DNA of 35,521 nucleotides from an uncultured Bacilli bacterium (GTDB lineage Bacteria; Bacillota_I; Bacilli_A; RF39; UBA660): assembly GCA_944372725.1 (NCBI GenBank), contig CALWAA010000136.1, positions 1-35,521 on the forward strand. The letters run 5' to 3'. Of this stretch, positions 15,771 to 19,335 are shown in pieces. Both the position numbers and the translations under genes were made by a program. The stretch's first letter is position 1, and each line of letters begins with the position of its first letter. The notes beneath the pieces were generated by a model that searched no databases, was not told where the DNA came from, and was given only the letters and a program-made list of their open reading frames with translations.

Positions 15771-16214
15771 ATGAGTACAGTAAAACAAAAATATTTAAAA
15801 GATGAAAGTGGAAGTAAAATAAGTCCAATAACAAGTGGTGATAGTGTTTTTGATAAAACAAATAACCCTATAACAGAATGGGATGGATATGAAGGTTCTT
15901 TGGCGGGATGGTATATATTTCCAAATGGTAGAATGATTATACAATGGGGACAACAAAAATTATCAACAACTAATAGTTGGTTACAAGATGGTGCGGATTA
16001 TTATAAAAATGTAAATTTATACCAGTCTATATTTGGAGGAGAATGTTTTGCTAATTTTTCTTATGCTAATGGTATAAACCATGCCGGAGCTACTCTATTA
16101 AAAAGTTCTGGTAGTACTAATTTTAATATTGTAAGACTAAGAACAAAAGTTAATCCAGCTGACATAAAGGGTGAATGTAATATAAATTGGTTTGTTATTG
16201 GAGTACTTTCATAA
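15771..16214 (+). CDS. tail-fibre tip / receptor-binding protein 1 (147 aa), intact
   Basis: It starts with the shared N-terminal peptide MSTVKQKYLKDESGSKISPITSGDSVF. The C-terminal part (WYIFPNGRMIIQWGQ...) resembles the 'NG.iiQWG' fibre C-terminal domain (gp53-like C-terminus), from memory. The ORF-track GTG 15723 start runs through the G10 hairpin and has no RBS. Confidence 0.8.
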   Translation: MSTVKQKYLKDESGSKISPITSGDSVFDKTNNPITEWDGYEGSLAGWYIFPNGRMIIQWGQQKLSTTNSWLQDGADYYKNVNLYQSIFGGECFANFSYANGINHAGATLLKSSGSTNFNIVRLRTKVNPADIKGECNINWFVIGVLS

Positions 16215-16215
16215 A

Positions 16216-16256
16216 AAGTATAAGGAGTCGTATATTATTTATATCTCCTTATACTT
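16216..16256 (+). other. 12-bp perfect hairpin after tip gene 1 (terminator-like, no U-tract)
   Basis: AAGTATAAGGAG (16216-16227) pairs with CTCCTTATACTT (16245-16256) around a 17-nt loop, followed by AATAAAAAG. Confidence 0.4.
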
Positions 16257-16309
16257 AATAAAAAGATAATGTAAATATTATCTATTTAAGGAAAGGAGAT
16301 ATTTAATAT

Positions 16310-16803
16310 ATGAGTACAGTAAAACAACAATATATTAGAAATACAGAAAATAATATAATCTCTCCTGTAACTTCTACAAAAAGTGTGTATACGGGGGGCA
16401 AGCCTTAAATAGTGTTTTAAGTAATTTGTATGAATCCAAAACACTATTTACAGGTTTAACATACGGTAATTTTAAAATAACAGATTATATGAGTAATTAT
16501 AATTTATTAAGAATAGATATACAAAATAATTCAAGTGTATTTGATGGACAACAATGTTTTAACAGTCATTTTATATGGGTAGTAGATGATGTACAATTTG
16601 CTATAAGTGGTATATTTTATATAGGTTCTACATATATGTATTTGTATAATACAGTTTTAAGTTTTGTAGGATTAAATGTAACACAGACTAATAATAATTT
16701 AATTAGAATACAACATAATATTAGTAATAGTACAAGTGCTGTTACTTCTAATGGTTTGTATATAAAATCTGTAGTAGGTTATAGAAAAATACAAAGTACT
16801 TAA
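16310..16803 (+). CDS. tail-fibre tip / receptor-binding protein 2, frame-disrupted at a G6 tract (OFF in this sequence; 164 aa if G7)
   Basis: An RBS (AAAGGAG) precedes ATG 16310, which reads MSTVKQQYIRNTENNIISPVTSTKSVYTGG and then stops at 16406-16408. The frame of the ORF-track ORF 16426-16803 is open back through the G-tract to 16354, and that ORF has no RBS. One extra G gives ...SVYTGGQALNSVLSNLYESKTLFTG... Confidence 0.75.
16393..16398 (+). repeat. poly-G tract (G6) inside tip gene 2
   Basis: The sequence reads acGGGGGGca. The tract encodes the Gly-Gly linker after the conserved N-terminal peptide, and G7 would restore the frame. Confidence 0.9.
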
Positions 16804-16855
16804 AAAAAATAATATTTATAATTATCTTTCTTATATAAGAAAGGAGTTATAAATA

Positions 16856-17332
16856 ATGTCAACACCAATAAAATATTTAAAAGATGAAAATGGAAATACA
16901 ATAAGTCCTGCTGTAAGTGTAGATAGTATATTCATACAGGGGGAGGTAAACTAGTTGACTACATATATCCTATAGGTAGTATTTATATGTCAGTTAACAG
17001 TACAAACCCTTCACAATTATTTGGACGGTACGTGGACTCAACTTAAAGACAGATTTTTATTAGGAGTTGGAGATACATATATAACAGTAAATAGTACTGG
17101 CGGGGAAGCCAGACATATATTAACAGAAGATGAAATGCCTGTACACCAACACACTAATAATAGTATTTATGCTACAACTCCTGGTACAGGTACTGTAATT
17201 GGAACAGCCGTATCGGGTGGAACTGGAACAGTAAACTGGTATGCGGATAATACAGGATTTCAAGGAAAAAATTATGCTCACAATAATATGCCACCCTATT
17301 TAACTGTTTATATGTGGAAACGTACGAAATAA
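16856..17332 (+). CDS. tail-fibre tip / receptor-binding protein 3 (tail-collar type), disrupted at a G5 tract and also carrying an in-frame CGG +1 site (158 aa if both are resolved)
   Basis: An RBS (AAAGGAG) precedes ATG 16856, which reads MSTPIKYLKDENGNTISPAVSVDSIFIQG and stops at 16952-16954. With G6 the reading continues GGGKLVDYIYPIGSIYMSVNSTNPSQLFG up to CGG 17026. Skipping the C gives GTWTQLKDRFLLGVGD...GGEARHILTEDEMPVHQH...NNMPPYLTVYMWKRT, a tail-collar / MdpB-like motif. The result aligns with tip protein 5. Confidence 0.7.
16939..16943 (+). repeat. poly-G tract (G5) inside tip gene 3
   Basis: The sequence reads caGGGGGagg. G6 would join the N-terminal peptide to the GKLVDYIYPIGSIY frame. 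Confidence 0.85.
17026..17028 (+). other. in-frame CGG codon at a +1 frame break (putative recoding site)
   Basis: The sequence is ttt gga CGG tac gtg gac tca act taa in the 0 frame. The +1 reading ttt gga (c)ggt acg tgg act caa gives FGGTWTQ, and the paralogue at 18003 has FGGTWE. Confidence 0.6.
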
Positions 17333-17409
17333 ATACATATAAATATAACTTATTTAAAAACAGGATATATAATTATAACTTCTAATAAATTTTAGGAGGT
17401 AATTATATA

Positions 17410-17962
17410 ATGGATGTAAAAAGTAAATATTTAAAAGATGAAACAGGTGAAGTAATTAGTCCTGTTGTAAGCACACAAACTGTATATGATGCCTCTGGAA
17501 ACACTTTGGGGGGGTATTGTACCTATTGGAACAGTACTTCCTTATGTAGGTAAAACTGCACCATTAAATTATTTATTATGTGATGGTTCAGTTTATAATA
17601 AAAGTGATTATCCAGAATTATATAATTTAATGTTAGCAAATTCTTCCATAGGAATTACAAATACAACATTTTATGTACCTGATTTAAAAGGAAGATTTGT
17701 TTTAGGTTATAATAGTGGTATTTATAATATAGGTGTAACCGGTGGAGAAGTAACTCATACTTTAACAGTTGATGAGATGCCTGCACATACTCACAGTTTA
17801 GCTATGCAAGCGGGAAATCAAACTGGAATAATAGATAAAATTTCTGTTAACGACTTTGTAAATTGTAATTGGTATTCACACGTGGAATACACAGGAGGAA
17901 ACCAACCCCACAATAATATGCCACCATATATAGTTTTAAATTATATAATAAGAGCCAAATAA
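17410..17962 (+). CDS. tail-fibre tip / receptor-binding protein 4 (tail-collar type), frame-disrupted at a G7 tract (OFF here; 183 aa if G6)
   Basis: An RBS (TAGGAGG) precedes ATG 17410, which reads MDVKSKYLKDETGEVISPVVSTQTVYDASGNTLGG and stops at 17551-17553. Removing one G gives ...TLGGIVPIGTVLPYVGKTAPLNYLLCDGSVYNKSDYPELY...GGEVTHTLTVDEMPAHTHS...HNNMPPYIVLNYIIRAK, a classic phage tail-collar pattern. The ORF-track start at 17486 has no RBS. Confidence 0.8.
17508..17514 (+). repeat. poly-G tract (G7) inside tip gene 4
   Basis: The sequence reads cttTGGGGGGGtat. G6 (or G9) restores the frame. Confidence 0.9.
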
Positions 17963-18002
17963 TAAAAACTGAACCTTCACAAAAAGTTTGGAGGTTTAAG
18001 AA

Positions 18003-18707
18003 ATGGCAAATAAAATAAGTTATATTGAAAATGAAAATGGAGAAAAAATATCTCCGGTTACAAGTGTAGATTCTATTTATACAGAAGACGGTAAAAAATT
18101 ATTAGATGCTTTACACCCAGTAGGTAGTATTTATTTATCTACATCTAGTACAAATCCTAGTACTTATTTTGGAGGTACTTGGGAAAGATTTGCGAATGGA
18201 CAAGTATTAGTAGGTGTAGATACACAGGAAACAGAATTTAATACAGTACAAAAAACAGGAGGAAATAAAACACATACAGTTACTTTAGATAAAGTACCGG
18301 CTCATACTCACAGTATTCCAAAATTAAGTGGAACAGCTGCATCTGCTGGAAGTCATACACATAGTGATACATTTGCAGTAGCAAGTGCTGGGTCCCACAC
18401 ACATAGACTAAAAAGAGGGGACGGTTCTACAGATTTTTCAGGTTTAGGTGAATTTACAAATAGAAAAACAGGTAAAGAACCTGTTCAACAAGCTGGAAGT
18501 TTTATTTGGGATGGTGTATCTGCTACAACAACTTCAGCGGGCGCACATACTCACACTTTAAATGGTTCTATAAGTTCTGGAGGAGTACATACACATACAG
18601 TATCAACCAAACCAAGTACTACAGGTAGTACAGGTAGTAGTATAAGTATTAATTTTAATGTACTACAACCTTATATCACTTGTTATATATGGAGAAGAAC
18701 ACAGTAA
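18003..18707 (+). CDS. tail-fibre tip / receptor-binding protein 5 (tail-collar type with five H-T-H motifs), intact
   Basis: GGAGG RBS. The N-terminus is MANKISYIENENGEKISPVTSVDSIY, followed by HPVGSIYLSTSSTNPSTYFGGTWERF and GGNKTHTVTLDKVPAHTHS. Further SHTHS, SHTHR, AHTHT and VHTHT motifs follow, and the C-terminus is LQPYITCYIWRRTQ. Confidence 0.9.
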   Translation: MANKISYIENENGEKISPVTSVDSIYTEDGKKLLDALHPVGSIYLSTSSTNPSTYFGGTWERFANGQVLVGVDTQETEFNTVQKTGGNKTHTVTLDKVPAHTHSIPKLSGTAASAGSHTHSDTFAVASAGSHTHRLKRGDGSTDFSGLGEFTNRKTGKEPVQQAGSFIWDGVSATTTSAGAHTHTLNGSISSGGVHTHTVSTKPSTTGSTGSSISINFNVLQPYITCYIWRRTQ

Positions 18708-18736
18708 ACTATTAATGTATAAAAGATAATTATTTT

Positions 18737-18793
18737 CCCTCTAATGTGTAAGTCATTAGGGGGGGGGTAGTTATTGAAAATAAAACTACTCCC
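18737..18793 (+). promoter_or_regulatory. twin hairpin built around a G9 run (18759-18767), immediately upstream of tip gene 6
   Basis: H1 pairs CCCTCTAATG (18737-18746) with CATTAGGGGG (18754-18763). H2 pairs GGGGTAGTT (18764-18772) with AACTACTCC(C) (18784-18793). The G-run is split 5+4. The second stem ends 8 nt before the RBS GAGGAG. Confidence 0.55.
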
Positions 18794-18816
18794 AAATATT
18801 GAGAGGAGTAGATAAA

Positions 18817-19335
18817 ATGAATGTAAATGGTAAATATTTAAAAGATGAAAGTGGAAATATAATTTCACCCGTAGTAAGTACAGATAGTATATACCACAAA
18901 GGTATAAATGCGTCTGGTATTATAGAAGCTTTAATTGAAGACCCAACATTCGAACTTTTATATAAAGGTGATGCTACTGTACCAGGTAAAAGTTCCAATG
19001 AAAAACTTACTATAACATTACAGAATAATATACAACTTTATGATATGCTTATGTTTGTAAATATAGCACGTGTTAGTTTTATACATAAATTACCAAGCGA
19101 AAATTATGTGTTACAAAATGATGAACGTAGTGTTGGTTTTATGGATATAAGTAATTGGGGTGGTGAATTTGTAAATTTTTTCGGATTTTATACACAAAAA
19201 ATATCAAATACACAAATACAATTATATAGTTCAAGATTAGCAACTATAACCACAACAGGTACTATTTCTGCATATGATGACTATGCTACAAATATAAATG
19301 CTATATATGGATTTAATACAAACCCAGGCGGTTAA
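18817..19335 (+). CDS. tail-fibre tip / receptor-binding protein 6 (172 aa), intact
   Basis: ATG 18817 lies 8 nt after GAGGAG (18803-18808); the ORF-track TTG 18799 overlaps the RBS. The N-terminus MNVNGKYLKDESGNIISPVVSTDSIY carries the shared peptide. The C-terminal domain is unrelated to the collar type. Confidence 0.85.
   Translation: MNVNGKYLKDESGNIISPVVSTDSIYHKGINASGIIEALIEDPTFELLYKGDATVPGKSSNEKLTITLQNNIQLYDMLMFVNIARVSFIHKLPSENYVLQNDERSVGFMDISNWGGEFVNFFGFYTQKISNTQIQLYSSRLATITTTGTISAYDDYATNINAIYGFNTNPGG

Follow-up and report, generated by a model that had tools for sequence, protein, structure and literature searches.

Phages with several receptor-binding proteins of the 'anchor and branch' type (Klebsiella KP32-type, PhiK64-1-type, CBA120 and G7C) carry conserved N-terminal docking peptides, and in these phages, as in BppL of the lactococcal phage TP901-1, short N-terminal segments fix interchangeable heads to a common virion platform. 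Switching of receptor-binding protein genes is known from Campylobacter Fletchervirus: as related in later articles (PMC11868660, PMC10877375, PMC12823448), Sorensen et al. (2021, Cell Rep 35:109214) described hypermutable poly-G runs in these genes, with ON/OFF variants and a mixed population. In coliphages T2 and T4, simple-sequence repeats lead to reversible frameshifts that act as a bet-hedge (Gomez, Barrick and Waters, bioRxiv 10.1101/2025.10.21.683753). In the tlpB-hp0102 leader of H. pylori, the length of a G repeat tunes translation through a C/U-rich partner, in a gradual rather than an ON/OFF manner (PMC8295292).

Here we describe an array of six genes for small, putative receptor-binding tips (g1 to g6) from an uncultured gut phage of ~200 kb, analyzed within a window of 35.5 kb, the whole stretch of DNA under study. 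Slippery G runs precede five of the tips and appear to switch or tune each of them separately. We consider it probable that the array is a tip repertoire in which hypermutable poly-G runs act as contingency loci and control the expression of the individual tips, in two modes. Such a repertoire would be comparable to the contingency loci known from Campylobacter phages, and one phage stock would then hold mixed host-recognition types.

As in Fletchervirus, G runs in phage receptor-binding genes are associated with ON/OFF variants. However, the phage lineage is different: its major capsid protein shares ~30% identity with the counterparts in SP-15/LIS04-type myoviruses, and a search with it gave no Campylobacter phage match. 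In addition, compared with Fletchervirus as portrayed in the articles cited above, the run occupies one fixed place here, past the adaptor that the six paralogous genes of the array have in common, and the present locus also has a second, non-coding leader mode. The T2/T4 loci are scattered over every functional gene class, whereas 124 of the 125 G/C runs of at least 7 nt in the clade studied here fall at two positions of a single family, that of the tip genes. The leader mode resembles tlpB-hp0102 in that a length-variable 5' UTR G repeat pairs with C/U-rich sequence. The H. pylori partner, however, is the small RNA RepG, acting in trans, while the C/U-rich partners here lie in cis, flanking the run on either side, and three helices involving the Shine-Dalgarno (SD) sequence would compete with one another, in a phage and with a predicted effect. 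This proposed RNA-leader mode of phase variation is seemingly undescribed so far. Unlike the docking peptides of the anchor-and-branch systems, the adaptor had no match in searches of the PDB or of cultured phages.

In the proposed mechanism, the runs of g2, g3, and g4 (mode B) lie in the reading frame right past the adaptor, as GGG glycine codons, and one G gained or lost in replication would either place the head in frame (ON) or leave a stub of 30-47 aa (OFF). The runs of g1 and g6 (mode A) would lie in the transcribed leader, on the strand common to two helices: P1, formed by an upstream pyrimidine run and the 5' G's, and P2, formed by the 3' G's and a C-rich segment. The same C-rich segment could form a third helix, P3, with the SD sequence. 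With a long run, P1 and P2 would coexist and free the ribosome-binding site; with a short run, P1 and P3 would remain and hide it. Run length would set which of these pairs forms, and would therefore be a heritable, stochastic dial on translation. The g5 gene, which has no run, would be made constitutively, and different tip combinations would coexist in the phage population, which would thereby hedge its bets against variation in host surfaces. Slippage is presumably frequent and reversible within a population, and the tips are presumed to be components of the virion that use a common docking site.

The first-pass annotation had reported six tandem tip genes with a common N-terminal peptide. 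The six peptides are present exactly as first quoted, all on the + strand, with start codons at 15771 (g1), 16310 (g2), 16856 (g3), 17410 (g4), 18003 (g5), and 18817 (g6). A profile HMM of the adaptor matched at exactly these six places when all six frames of the window were searched (E 3e-17 to 9e-15) and found no seventh copy, the next match having E > 2. The shared peptide is not due to chance, because homology is supported both by the profile HMM and at the DNA level, where the adaptors form an 87-nt repeat family with 60-70% identity. Each protein consists of an adaptor of ~26 aa followed by a differing head. The adaptor has low confidence in the predicted monomer models of g1 and g6 (pLDDT 45-58), which is the expectation for a segment folding only on a partner.

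While the six adaptors are real, only g1, g5, and g6 are intact ORFs; g2, g3, and g4 are frameshifted in the window, each at a G run just past the shared peptide. The g1 gene (15771-16214) encodes a tip protein of 147 aa, with the adaptor at residues 1-27 and a beta-sandwich head at residues 45-147. The g5 gene (18003-18707) encodes a 234-aa tip protein of the Gp10_C type containing five HxH repeats; the gene is intact wherever it was recovered by homology to the window. The g6 gene (18817-19335) encodes a tip protein of 172 aa. In g2 (16310-16803), which is OFF, a 32-aa adaptor stub ends at 16408, and the head is encoded in a different frame up to 16803. A run of G7 or G10 would join the two into one reading frame of 164-165 aa, the G6 of the window being one G short, and an in-frame 165-aa version (G10) is present in assemblies L009 and L012. 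Also OFF is g4, a Collar/Gp10_C tip gene (17410-17962) with a 47-aa stub ending at 17553: the full protein of 183-184 aa is obtained with G6 or G9, one G fewer or two more than the G7 of the window, and assemblies L014 and L015 carry the in-frame 184-aa version (G9). The Gp10_C-type gene g3 (16856-17332) reaches a stop codon after 32 aa and is damaged at two places: its G run at 16939-16946 is interrupted (GGGGGAGG), and there is an additional C at 17026. Genomes of the L017 lineage have a pure run in g3 (G7, G8, or G9); with G9, as in L017 and L023, the protein is intact at 162 aa.

In the window, four G runs of at least 6 were found: G10 upstream of g1 (15725-15734), on the strand common to P1 and P2; G6 in g2 (16393-16398), directly past the adaptor; G7 in g4 (17508-17514), past the adaptor; and G9 upstream of g6 (18759-18767), in leader 6. 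All four lie inside the 3-kb array (P ~0.002 for all four within 3 kb). Runs of at least 7 were observed 3 times vs. 0.16 expected, and runs of at least 9 twice vs. 0.007 expected. The two longest (G10 and G9) precede the start codons of g1 and g6 by 36-50 nt, and only g5 is without a run. These data bear on the initial view of six tips produced at the same time and competing for a single site, in which the G runs would be glycine linkers or incidental. Such a static repertoire fits the shared adaptor, the different heads, and the intact g1, g5, and g6, but it is contradicted for this genome, in which three of the six tips are out of frame. Moreover, GGG accounts for just 2.6% of glycine codons, two runs are non-coding, and near-identical genomes differ in run length. 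We regard it as very improbable, and the first account of the locus had missed the feature around which it is organised, the hypermutable runs that would gate single tips.

Run lengths were compared among 18 contigs from 17 samples carrying the same phage. Every run varies: 8, 9, or 10 G upstream of g1; 6, 9, or 10 in g2; 7, 8, or 9 in g3; and 7, 8, 9, or 10 both in g4 and upstream of g6, although these lengths come from consensus assemblies, and the differences between assemblies could include some homopolymer miscalls. Sister genomes carry in-frame alleles of g2 (G10), g3 (G9), and g4 (G9). In eight assemblies at most 0.1% diverged from the window, the sole indels were 1-4 G-run length changes, with no indel outside the G runs, and a control A8 run at 16802 was constant. 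This between-genome variation and the ON and OFF alleles directly support the contingency-locus proposal. It is highly unlikely that the length differences and frameshifts are sequencing or assembly errors in homopolymers and that all genes are really intact. Some platforms are error-prone on long G runs and only consensus contigs were compared, but the same OFF lengths recur in samples and projects that are independent of each other (8 other contigs have G6 in g2, and 6 have G8 in g4), run lengths follow lineages while the A8 run is stable, run positions are kept across diverged phages, and many of the inspected short stubs end right past the run.

Homopolymer runs can cause polymerase or ribosome slippage in other systems, and OFF alleles might accordingly yield full-length protein by ribosomal frameshifting or transcriptional slippage, in which case the DNA state would matter little. 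We consider this quite unlikely, as the needed shift is opposite in sign in g2 (+1 nt) and g4 (-1 nt), and ON alleles exist in the DNA.

The positional pattern extends to the relatives surveyed, which are gut phages with 23-31% G+C. Among 46 distinct adaptor lineages, 24 have an in-frame run at nt 66-103, 15 have a leader run, and 7 have none; both run types together were found in 0/46. The 125 G/C runs of at least 7 in 576 kb of clade sequence comprised 62 leader runs, 62 in-frame runs, and 1 that was neither. These stereotyped positions are again direct support for the proposal. When the adaptor profile was searched against 5.8 billion proteins, 188 matches were obtained, of which the best 120 were all 30-78 aa long, and many of the 20 matches inspected terminate just after GG(G). 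The frameshifted copies could instead be pseudogenes of a duplicated family, with runs that are hot spots of mutation but are not under selection for switching. The two lesions of g3 and the g2 run of only G6 in this lineage are in keeping with decay, as is g4 of the L017 lineage, which is in frame yet truncated at 105 aa. As a general explanation, decay is unlikely, since the downstream head frames remain open and conserved, sister genomes carry ON alleles, and ~85% of the 46 lineages have kept a run in one or other of the two fixed places despite strong codon bias. The lesions of g3 and the shrinkage of g2 to G6 do mean that decay, not switching, is at work in part of the array. Under the contingency-locus reading, g1, g5, and g6 are intact in the window, g4 is OFF but can be switched, g2 is OFF and only weakly switchable, and g3 is dead or locked OFF.

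The leader of g1 (leader 1, 15693-15770) folds to -31.2 kcal/mol (z -4.15). It contains a pyrimidine run, CCTCCC (15704-15709), followed by ext1 (ATTAG, 15710-15714), a loop, ext1' (CTAGT, 15720-15724), and the G run; 3' of the run are ext2 (TATGT, 15735-15739), ext2' (ACATA, 15747-15751), the C-rich seg3 (TCCC, 15752-15755), and the SD strand (GGGATAT, 15761-15767). The leader of g6 (leader 6, 18727-18816; -32.4 kcal/mol, z -4.83) has the same layout, with the pyrimidine run TTTTCCCTC (18733-18741), ext1 (TAATG, 18742-18746), and ext1' (CATTA, 18754-18758) before the G run, then ext2 (TAGT, 18768-18771), ext2' (ACTA, 18785-18788), seg3 (CTCCC, 18789-18793), and the SD strand (GGAGTAG, 18805-18811). 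TAT or TAG is found immediately 3' of every leader run. When the run and the pyrimidine run are equal in length, P1 is a continuous helix of 17-20 bp.

Helices P1, P2, and P3 are present in 16/16 distinct leaders. Paired cells made up 89.9% of P1 (75.6% in shuffles), 94.6% of P2 (83.1%), and 89.6% of P3 (63.4%), in hairpin alignments that lean towards structure because their register was taken from single-sequence folds. The covariation score of each helix was matched by 0/500 shuffles, and slid controls scored much lower. In independent partner-shuffle tests, an outcome as good was obtained in 1/50000 for P1, 0/50000 for P2, and 0/50000 for P3. All seven pairs of P3 vary on both sides, and the pyrimidine run swaps C and U yet stays paired with G. 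The covariation supports the helices of the proposed leader mode.

A ViennaRNA scan from G4 to G14 suggests that leader run length alters translation: the minimum-energy fold flips from P1+P3, with the SD ~0.2 unpaired, to P1+P2, with the SD ~0.9 unpaired in the g1 leader and 0.36-0.87 in other leaders at or just past the flip. The flip is predicted at G10 for g1 (natural lengths 8-10) and at G10-11 for g6 (natural lengths 7-10). In several leaders, the predicted threshold (G11-13) exceeds the natural lengths (9-11), so this simple folding model, which ignores co-transcriptional folding and upstream ribosomes, would class most natural alleles as hidden. Hairpins that would sequester the SD are predicted as well for g2-g5, genes without a leader run, so occlusion of the P3 type is not confined to mode A.

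The upstream runs might act instead on DNA or transcription, as promoter spacers, or with P1 as a terminator or processing site (e.g., an RNase III target). Promoter-spacer runs are frequent in classic bacterial phase variation, and both the continuous P1 helix and the TAT/TAG after every run would suit such a role. However, a scan covering sigma-70-like promoters, with phage-specific ones outside its reach, called none at either run and no + strand terminator; P1 has no U-tail; the space from P1 to the ATG (at most 45 nt) is too short for a promoter plus leader; and the compensatory changes in P1, P2, and P3, including SD-containing pairs, argue for RNA pairing. This alternative is possible but doubtful.

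The heads look like receptor-binding domains, judging from profiles and models. Once repaired, g3, g4, and g5 belong to the Gp10_C/Collar fold family (PF21939, PF07484), above Pfam thresholds (E 3e-26, 6e-13/4e-6, and 2e-31, respectively), and residues 32-93 of g5 align to PDB 2FKK. The tail-collar type first proposed for these three tips is thereby supported, as is the general picture of a common adaptor with differing, receptor-binding-like heads. The initial description of the C-terminal domains as unrelated is correct only in part, given the fold family common to g3-g5; g1, g2, and g6 had no above-threshold match in Pfam or PHROG. In T4 gp10, this domain ends a 600-aa wedge protein and the solved structure (2FKK) leaves the g3-g5 adaptor outside, while here the domain stands alone past a 26-aa adaptor.

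A gp53-like C-terminal type had been proposed for g1. The Pfam match to Gp53-like_C is weak (E 0.3; 12 bits vs. a cut-off of 24.9 bits), whereas 25 predicted viral structures matched the g1 model at E <= 1e-3, the named ones being mostly tail-fibre or tail proteins and two being labelled gp53-like C-terminal domain. In comparison with the PDB, the R1-pyocin fibre tip and lectins matched the g1 model weakly (E ~1e-3), and the resemblance of g1 to a lectin-like tail-fibre fold is a weak one. For g2 and g6, first listed as of unknown type, this still applies to g2, but the g6 model (Foldseek) matches the C-terminal domains of the Staphylococcus phi812 baseplate receptor-binding proteins and phage K gp144 (PDB 9euf, 5m9f; E 3e-5, TM 0.49). 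The phi812/K proteins have 458-640 aa and their own N-terminal baseplate-binding parts, whereas the 172 aa of g6 comprise the adaptor and one head.

The array is flanked on the + strand by two fibre genes. Upstream, it adjoins the gene for a 2072-aa coiled-coil fibre (9473-15691), a candidate tip carrier; downstream, it adjoins the gene for a 782-aa fibre (19392-21740), whose N-terminus is similar to that of the upstream fibre.

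The six tip genes (g1 to g6), each composed of an adaptor of about 26 aa followed by a head domain, form an array on the + strand (15771-19335) between the genes for a 2072-aa and a 782-aa fiber. The N-terminal peptides quoted for them in the first-pass annotation were exact, with starts at 15771, 16310, 16856, 17410, 18003, and 18817 on the + strand. An HMM of the six peptides, run against all six frames of the window, found the same six places only (E 3e-17 to 9e-15; next best match, E > 2). The likeness is also seen at the DNA level, where the adaptors form an 87-nt repeat family with 60-70% identity. 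The picture of six tandem tip genes therefore held for the shared peptides and not for the reading frames: only g1 (15771-16214), g5 (18003-18707), and g6 (18817-19335) are intact + strand ORFs, and g2 to g4 are frame-broken. From their + strand starts, g2 (16310) stops after 32 aa with a break at a G6 run (16393-16398), g3 (16856) after 32 aa with a break at GGGGGAGG (16939-16946), and g4 (17410) after 47 aa with a break at a G7 run (17508-17514). In each case the break point is a G run right behind the shared peptide, and the head goes on in another frame. An extra C at 17026 is a second lesion in g3. In this lineage, then, part of the array is decaying, with a dead g3 and a shortened run in g2.

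The two remaining runs fall outside coding sequence and lie on the + strand in the leaders of intact genes: a G10 run (15725-15734) that ends 36 nt upstream of the g1 start and a G9 run (18759-18767) that ends 49 nt upstream of the g6 start. A longer g1 initiated at a GTG (15723) was rejected, as this GTG is merely the first codon of the G run. We refer to the leader runs of g1 and g6 as mode A and to the in-frame runs behind the adaptors of g2, g3, and g4 as mode B. The window has 27% G+C and uses the standard code, and GGG makes up only 2.6% of its glycine codons. Only four G runs of at least 6 (G6, G7, G10, and G9) occur in the 35.5 kb, all of them in the array, and the chance of all four falling within 3 kb is about 0.002. 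Three runs of at least 7 were observed against 0.16 expected, and two of at least 9 against 0.007 expected.

Exact-protein look-ups with g5 and g1 led to 18 contigs from 17 samples and at least three sequencing projects; all 18, up to about 200 kb long, belong to the same phage. Read from these consensus contigs, the length varies at every run: 8, 9, or 10 upstream of g1; 6, 9, or 10 in g2; 7, 8, or 9 in g3, whose run is uninterrupted in the L017 lineage (L numbers denote other assemblies or contigs with the same phage or relatives); 7, 8, 9, or 10 in g4; and 7, 8, 9, or 10 upstream of g6. For g2, g3, and g4, run length toggles the frame between near-identical genomes, and both ON alleles (head in frame) and OFF alleles (frameshifted at the run, leaving an adaptor stub) were found. 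The in-frame alleles are G10 for g2 (165 aa; L009 and L012), G9 for g3 (162 aa; L017 and L023), and G9 for g4 (184 aa; L014 and L015). Runs of about seven or more are thus found within g4 (G7) and, in a putatively controlling position, upstream of g1 and g6 (G10 and G9), and the G6 of g2 has sisters of G9-10. Random miscalls in homopolymers could in principle produce such differences; against them stands the recurrence of the same OFF lengths in independent samples. In addition, the eight assemblies that differ from the window by no more than 0.1% substitutions carry one to four G-run length changes and no indel elsewhere, and an A8 run at 16802, taken as a control, is constant in all eight.

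Adaptor scans revealed relatives in human-fecal viral contigs (IMG/VR 3300045988, a co-assembly of human fecal samples) and in other metagenomes, with 23-31% G+C. Among 46 distinct adaptor lineages, 24 have an in-frame G run at nt 66-103, mostly at nt 81-87, 15 have a leader run, 7 have no run, and none has both. In 576 kb of clade sequence, 125 G/C runs of at least 7 were counted: 62 in leaders, 62 in frame, and one in neither position. This last one, at 4509 in L002, is the sole G7 run of that sequence away from adaptor-family genes. When 5.8 billion proteins were searched with the adaptor profile, 188 matches were obtained, and the best 120 of the 188 all had lengths of 30-78 aa. Of the 20 matches that we read, many stop right behind GG(G); from their sequences, these short adaptor proteins look like OFF-state stubs. 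One such stub (P0093, 44 aa) clusters with a 481-aa protein (P0144), so that much larger heads also occur behind the adaptor.

Besides those in the fiber module, relatives carry adaptor-family genes beside a thyX-like gene and directly after a gene that ends in a FolD-like motif (GVGPMTVAML), as seen in L041 (530-1189) and, just upstream of position 3001, in L036, L038, L039, L051, L052, and L054; from these settings, the family members behave as self-contained cassettes. Between lineages, one head takes the place of another behind the same adaptor (L017, at about 13077, L019, L021, L022, and L023); the L017 lineage has a different 178-aa head in place of g6, and L014 and L015 (236-974) have g1 and g2 either replaced or in a degraded form. 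On sequence grounds, recombination at the conserved 5' ends would fit such swapping. Six contigs (L012, L013, L016, L022, L023, and L026) end near the array, at places that map to about 15778-18964 of the window. These ends were rejected as evidence of heterogeneity because they map to repeated adaptor-coding DNA (AAATATTTAAAAGATGAAA) and not specifically to the runs. Adaptor repeats fragment assemblies at the array, with population heterogeneity perhaps a further cause.

The leaders of mode A share an architecture. All 16 distinct leaders (16/16) have one common order of parts: ATA and a T/C pyrimidine run; a short arm, a loop, and a complementary arm; the G run; TAT/TAG and an arm, a loop, and a complementary arm; a C-rich segment; a loop; and the Shine-Dalgarno sequence (SD), which lies 9-14 nt before the start codon. 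Folding of sub-sequences gave three helices in every leader. In P1, the pyrimidine run and its arm pair with the other arm and the 5' G's; in P2, the 3' G's and their arm pair with the other arm and the C-rich segment; and in P3, the C-rich segment pairs with the SD. P2 and P3 are mutually exclusive, and P1 and P2 compete for the G's. The variable G repeat thus pairs with C/U-rich sequence in cis, namely the pyrimidine run and the C-rich segment. The helix arms differ in sequence between leaders and keep their complementarity, as in ATTAG/CTAGT, AACAG/CTGTT, and TAATG/CATTA for P1, TATGT/ACATA, TATGA/TCATA, and TATTA/TAATA for P2, and ATATCCC/GGGATAT, CCTCCA/TGGAGG, and CTACTCC/GGAGTAG for P3.

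Paired cells and covariation exceeded those of shuffled leaders for P1 (89.9% vs 75.6%; 0.569 vs 0.333), P2 (94.6% vs 83.1%; 0.476 vs 0.241), and P3 (89.6% vs 63.4%; 0.743 vs 0.245), with none of 500 shuffles reaching the observed covariation score for any helix. It should be noted that the percentages lean toward structure, as the register of these alignments was set from single-sequence folds; the shuffle and slide controls are free of this bias. Slid controls were much lower for P1, P2, and P3, and independent partner shuffles reached the observed value in 1/50000 (P1), 0/50000 (P2), and 0/50000 (P3) trials. All pairs of P3 (7/7) vary on both strands. Covariation is carried by the flanking pairs, with C and U exchanging opposite G. 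The alignments used were anchored and N-padded; plain MAFFT and unanchored hairpin alignments were out of register and were left out. The leaders of the window have fold z-scores of -4.2 and -4.8. No Rfam family matched the window at gathering score, and none matched 15600-19450 at E <= 5. A degenerate DNA pattern of the leader, searched against IMG/VR, gave one true leader among the 120 loci listed, the rest being almost pure noise.

Other roles for the upstream runs were considered. If a run varied a promoter spacer, -35 and -10 hexamers 16-18 nt apart would flank it; no sigma-70-type promoter was called at either upstream run in a scan confined to that type, which argues against this form of phase variation. 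No + strand terminator was called at either run. An upstream ORF right after the run (g1, L001) was rejected as a conserved feature, as other leaders are without it.

In mode B, slippage by one G would shift the head in or out of frame, which is classic contingency-locus logic, and just the adaptor would be made in the OFF state. For mode A, run lengths of G4 to G14 were scanned with ViennaRNA, and the minimum-energy fold was predicted to flip from P1+P3 to P1+P2. The SD is about 0.2 unpaired in the P1+P3 state; in the P1+P2 state it is about 0.9 unpaired in the g1 leader and 0.36-0.87 in other leaders at or just past the flip. The predicted flip is at G10 for the g1 leader (natural lengths 8-10), at G10-11 for the g6 leader (7-10), and at G11-13 for other leaders (9-11). 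Folding of the g6 leader without the 5' strand of P1 freed the SD too. Given this and the flip, the thermodynamic modeling predicts that run length dials the translation of these genes. Caution is called for, since several flip thresholds lie above the natural lengths and SD hairpins are also predicted for g2-g5. Upstream of g2 (16230-16312), g4 (17330-17412), and g5 (17923-18005), the SD is predicted to pair with upstream CUCC/CUUC (z -6.0, -3.9, and -2.5), and the probability of an unpaired SD is 0-0.06 for g2-g5, with a wide spread in the other genes of the window. By these folds, an occluded SD may be common to the tip genes in general.

In the mechanism that we propose, the leader G run would be a strand common to two helices, and its length would decide the fate of the anti-SD segment: captured, this segment would leave the ribosome site open; left to pair with the SD, it would close it. 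Each virion lineage would thereby carry a heritable setting for its tip, both stochastic and graded. The 30-47-aa adaptor stubs of OFF alleles might also cap the shared docking site. We regard it as possible, if somewhat short of probable, that the g1/g6 leader works as an RNA switch without a ligand, with replication slippage as its input, and that, together with the in-frame runs, it makes up a five-channel combinatorial host-range generator.

The heads themselves appear receptor-binding-protein-like in domain searches and structure models. The proposed tail-collar type of g3-g5 was confirmed: Gp10_C/Collar Pfam matches lie above the gathering thresholds for g3 after frame repair (93.4 bits), for g5 (110.4 bits), and for frame-repaired g4 (Collar, 49.1 bits; Gp10_C, 28.2 bits; cut-offs 27 and 24). 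Residues 32-93 of g5 align with the C-terminal domain of T4 gp10 (PDB 2FKK), a domain that does not include the adaptor. Five tandem-like (S/A)G.HTH(S/T) copies, with a weak YmaF-like match, are inserted in the Gp10_C domain of g5 (18300-18600). HxH repeats of this kind bind metal ions in T4 fiber tips. The AlphaFold model of g6 (mean pLDDT 80; head blocks 82-96, with one loop falling to about 65) is matched by the baseplate receptor-binding proteins of phi812 and by phage K gp144 C-terminal domains (E 3e-5, TM 0.49). The g1 head (pLDDT 80-90) weakly matches the R1-pyocin fiber tip and lectins, and the g1 model has 25 BFVD matches at E <= 1e-3, the named ones being mostly tail-fiber or tail proteins. 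The gp53-like C-terminal type suggested for g1 scored 12.1 bits in Pfam (E 0.3; cut-off 24.9) and survives as a fold likeness only, through two BFVD matches so labeled (E 7e-4 and 2e-3, TM about 0.4). No Pfam or PHROG match was found for g2.

In the g1 and g6 models, the adaptor has a pLDDT of 45-58, as would be expected of a segment that folds on a partner. No candidate partner with a T4 gp10-like docking domain was identified in the window. A shorter fiber in L012 was rejected as a natural partner swap, being the same protein, truncated. The reading of the array as a common anchor with interchangeable heads is thus supported in part, by the shared peptide and the receptor-binding-protein-like heads, with three tips frame-broken. 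As in anchor-branch multi-receptor-binding-protein systems, several such proteins here share a conserved N-terminal peptide.

Large Firmicute myoviruses such as SP-15 and LIS04 have major capsid proteins with about 30% identity to that of the window (32097-33500). A near-identity DNA search of GenBank phages with the array gave no match, and the window has no near relative there. Likewise, tblastn against cultured phages with g6 and the adaptor consensus gave no significant match, a scan of genome contigs with g1 gave none, and neither the solved structures nor the cultured phages contain the adaptor.

To our knowledge, experimental proof of phase variation in phage receptor-binding proteins exists only for Campylobacter phages. 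The locus suggests that a large clade of uncultured gut phages applies the principle far more systematically, with a G run gating nearly all members of an adaptor-plus-head tip family from either of two fixed positions. The kind is already known: in Campylobacter Fletchervirus, phase variation of receptor-binding proteins through poly-G runs was shown (Sorensen 2021, as cited in PMC11868660 and PMC10877375), and T2 and T4 are reported to have contingency loci (bioRxiv 10.1101/2025.10.21.683753). New here are the different phage lineage, the dedicated adaptor-plus-head family with a run at a fixed place in nearly every member, and a seemingly undescribed leader mode, built on three covarying helices; a comparable leader may have been noted in Sorensen 2021. 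The nearest precedent for this leader is that of H. pylori tlpB, in which regulation by the small RNA RepG, through its C/U-rich loop, depends gradually on G-repeat length (PMC8295292). Unlike in that system, both C/U partners are in cis and suffice for the model, so we did not assign the leader to the RepG-tlpB type. If it works as predicted, it would be a compact, mutation-tuned RNA switch that could serve as a model of stochastic yet heritable gene control and as a template for building tunable expression. There are also lessons for metagenomics: in these phages, tail genes "broken" by frameshifts, and likewise 30-aa stubs, would be states and not errors, a single consensus genome would give wrong host-range predictions, and such arrays tend to break contigs.

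Other features of the window deserve mention. Three very long fiber genes with extensive coiled coils are present (3042-9182, 2046 aa; 9473-15691, 2072 aa; 19392-21740, 782 aa). The 2046-aa fiber has an Mtd_N domain (E 2e-7), the 2072-aa and 782-aa fibers have a common N-terminal motif (MK..RC.S..L...P..DGQ..YVKDT.E.YLDV), and the 2072-aa fiber has internal repeats of about 60-90 aa (TNTTY..MTGATS...GLVP.P...FL.GDGTW). No tRNAs were found in the window. The major capsid gene is followed directly by a 617-aa homing/HNH endonuclease gene (33660-35513); SP-15, which gave the best capsid match, has its own capsid gene split by an endonuclease. Finally, G+C dips sharply to 18% at 31001-32000, with a negative GC skew, in the 3' part of an ORF (30410-31924) that matches the head maturation protease family.
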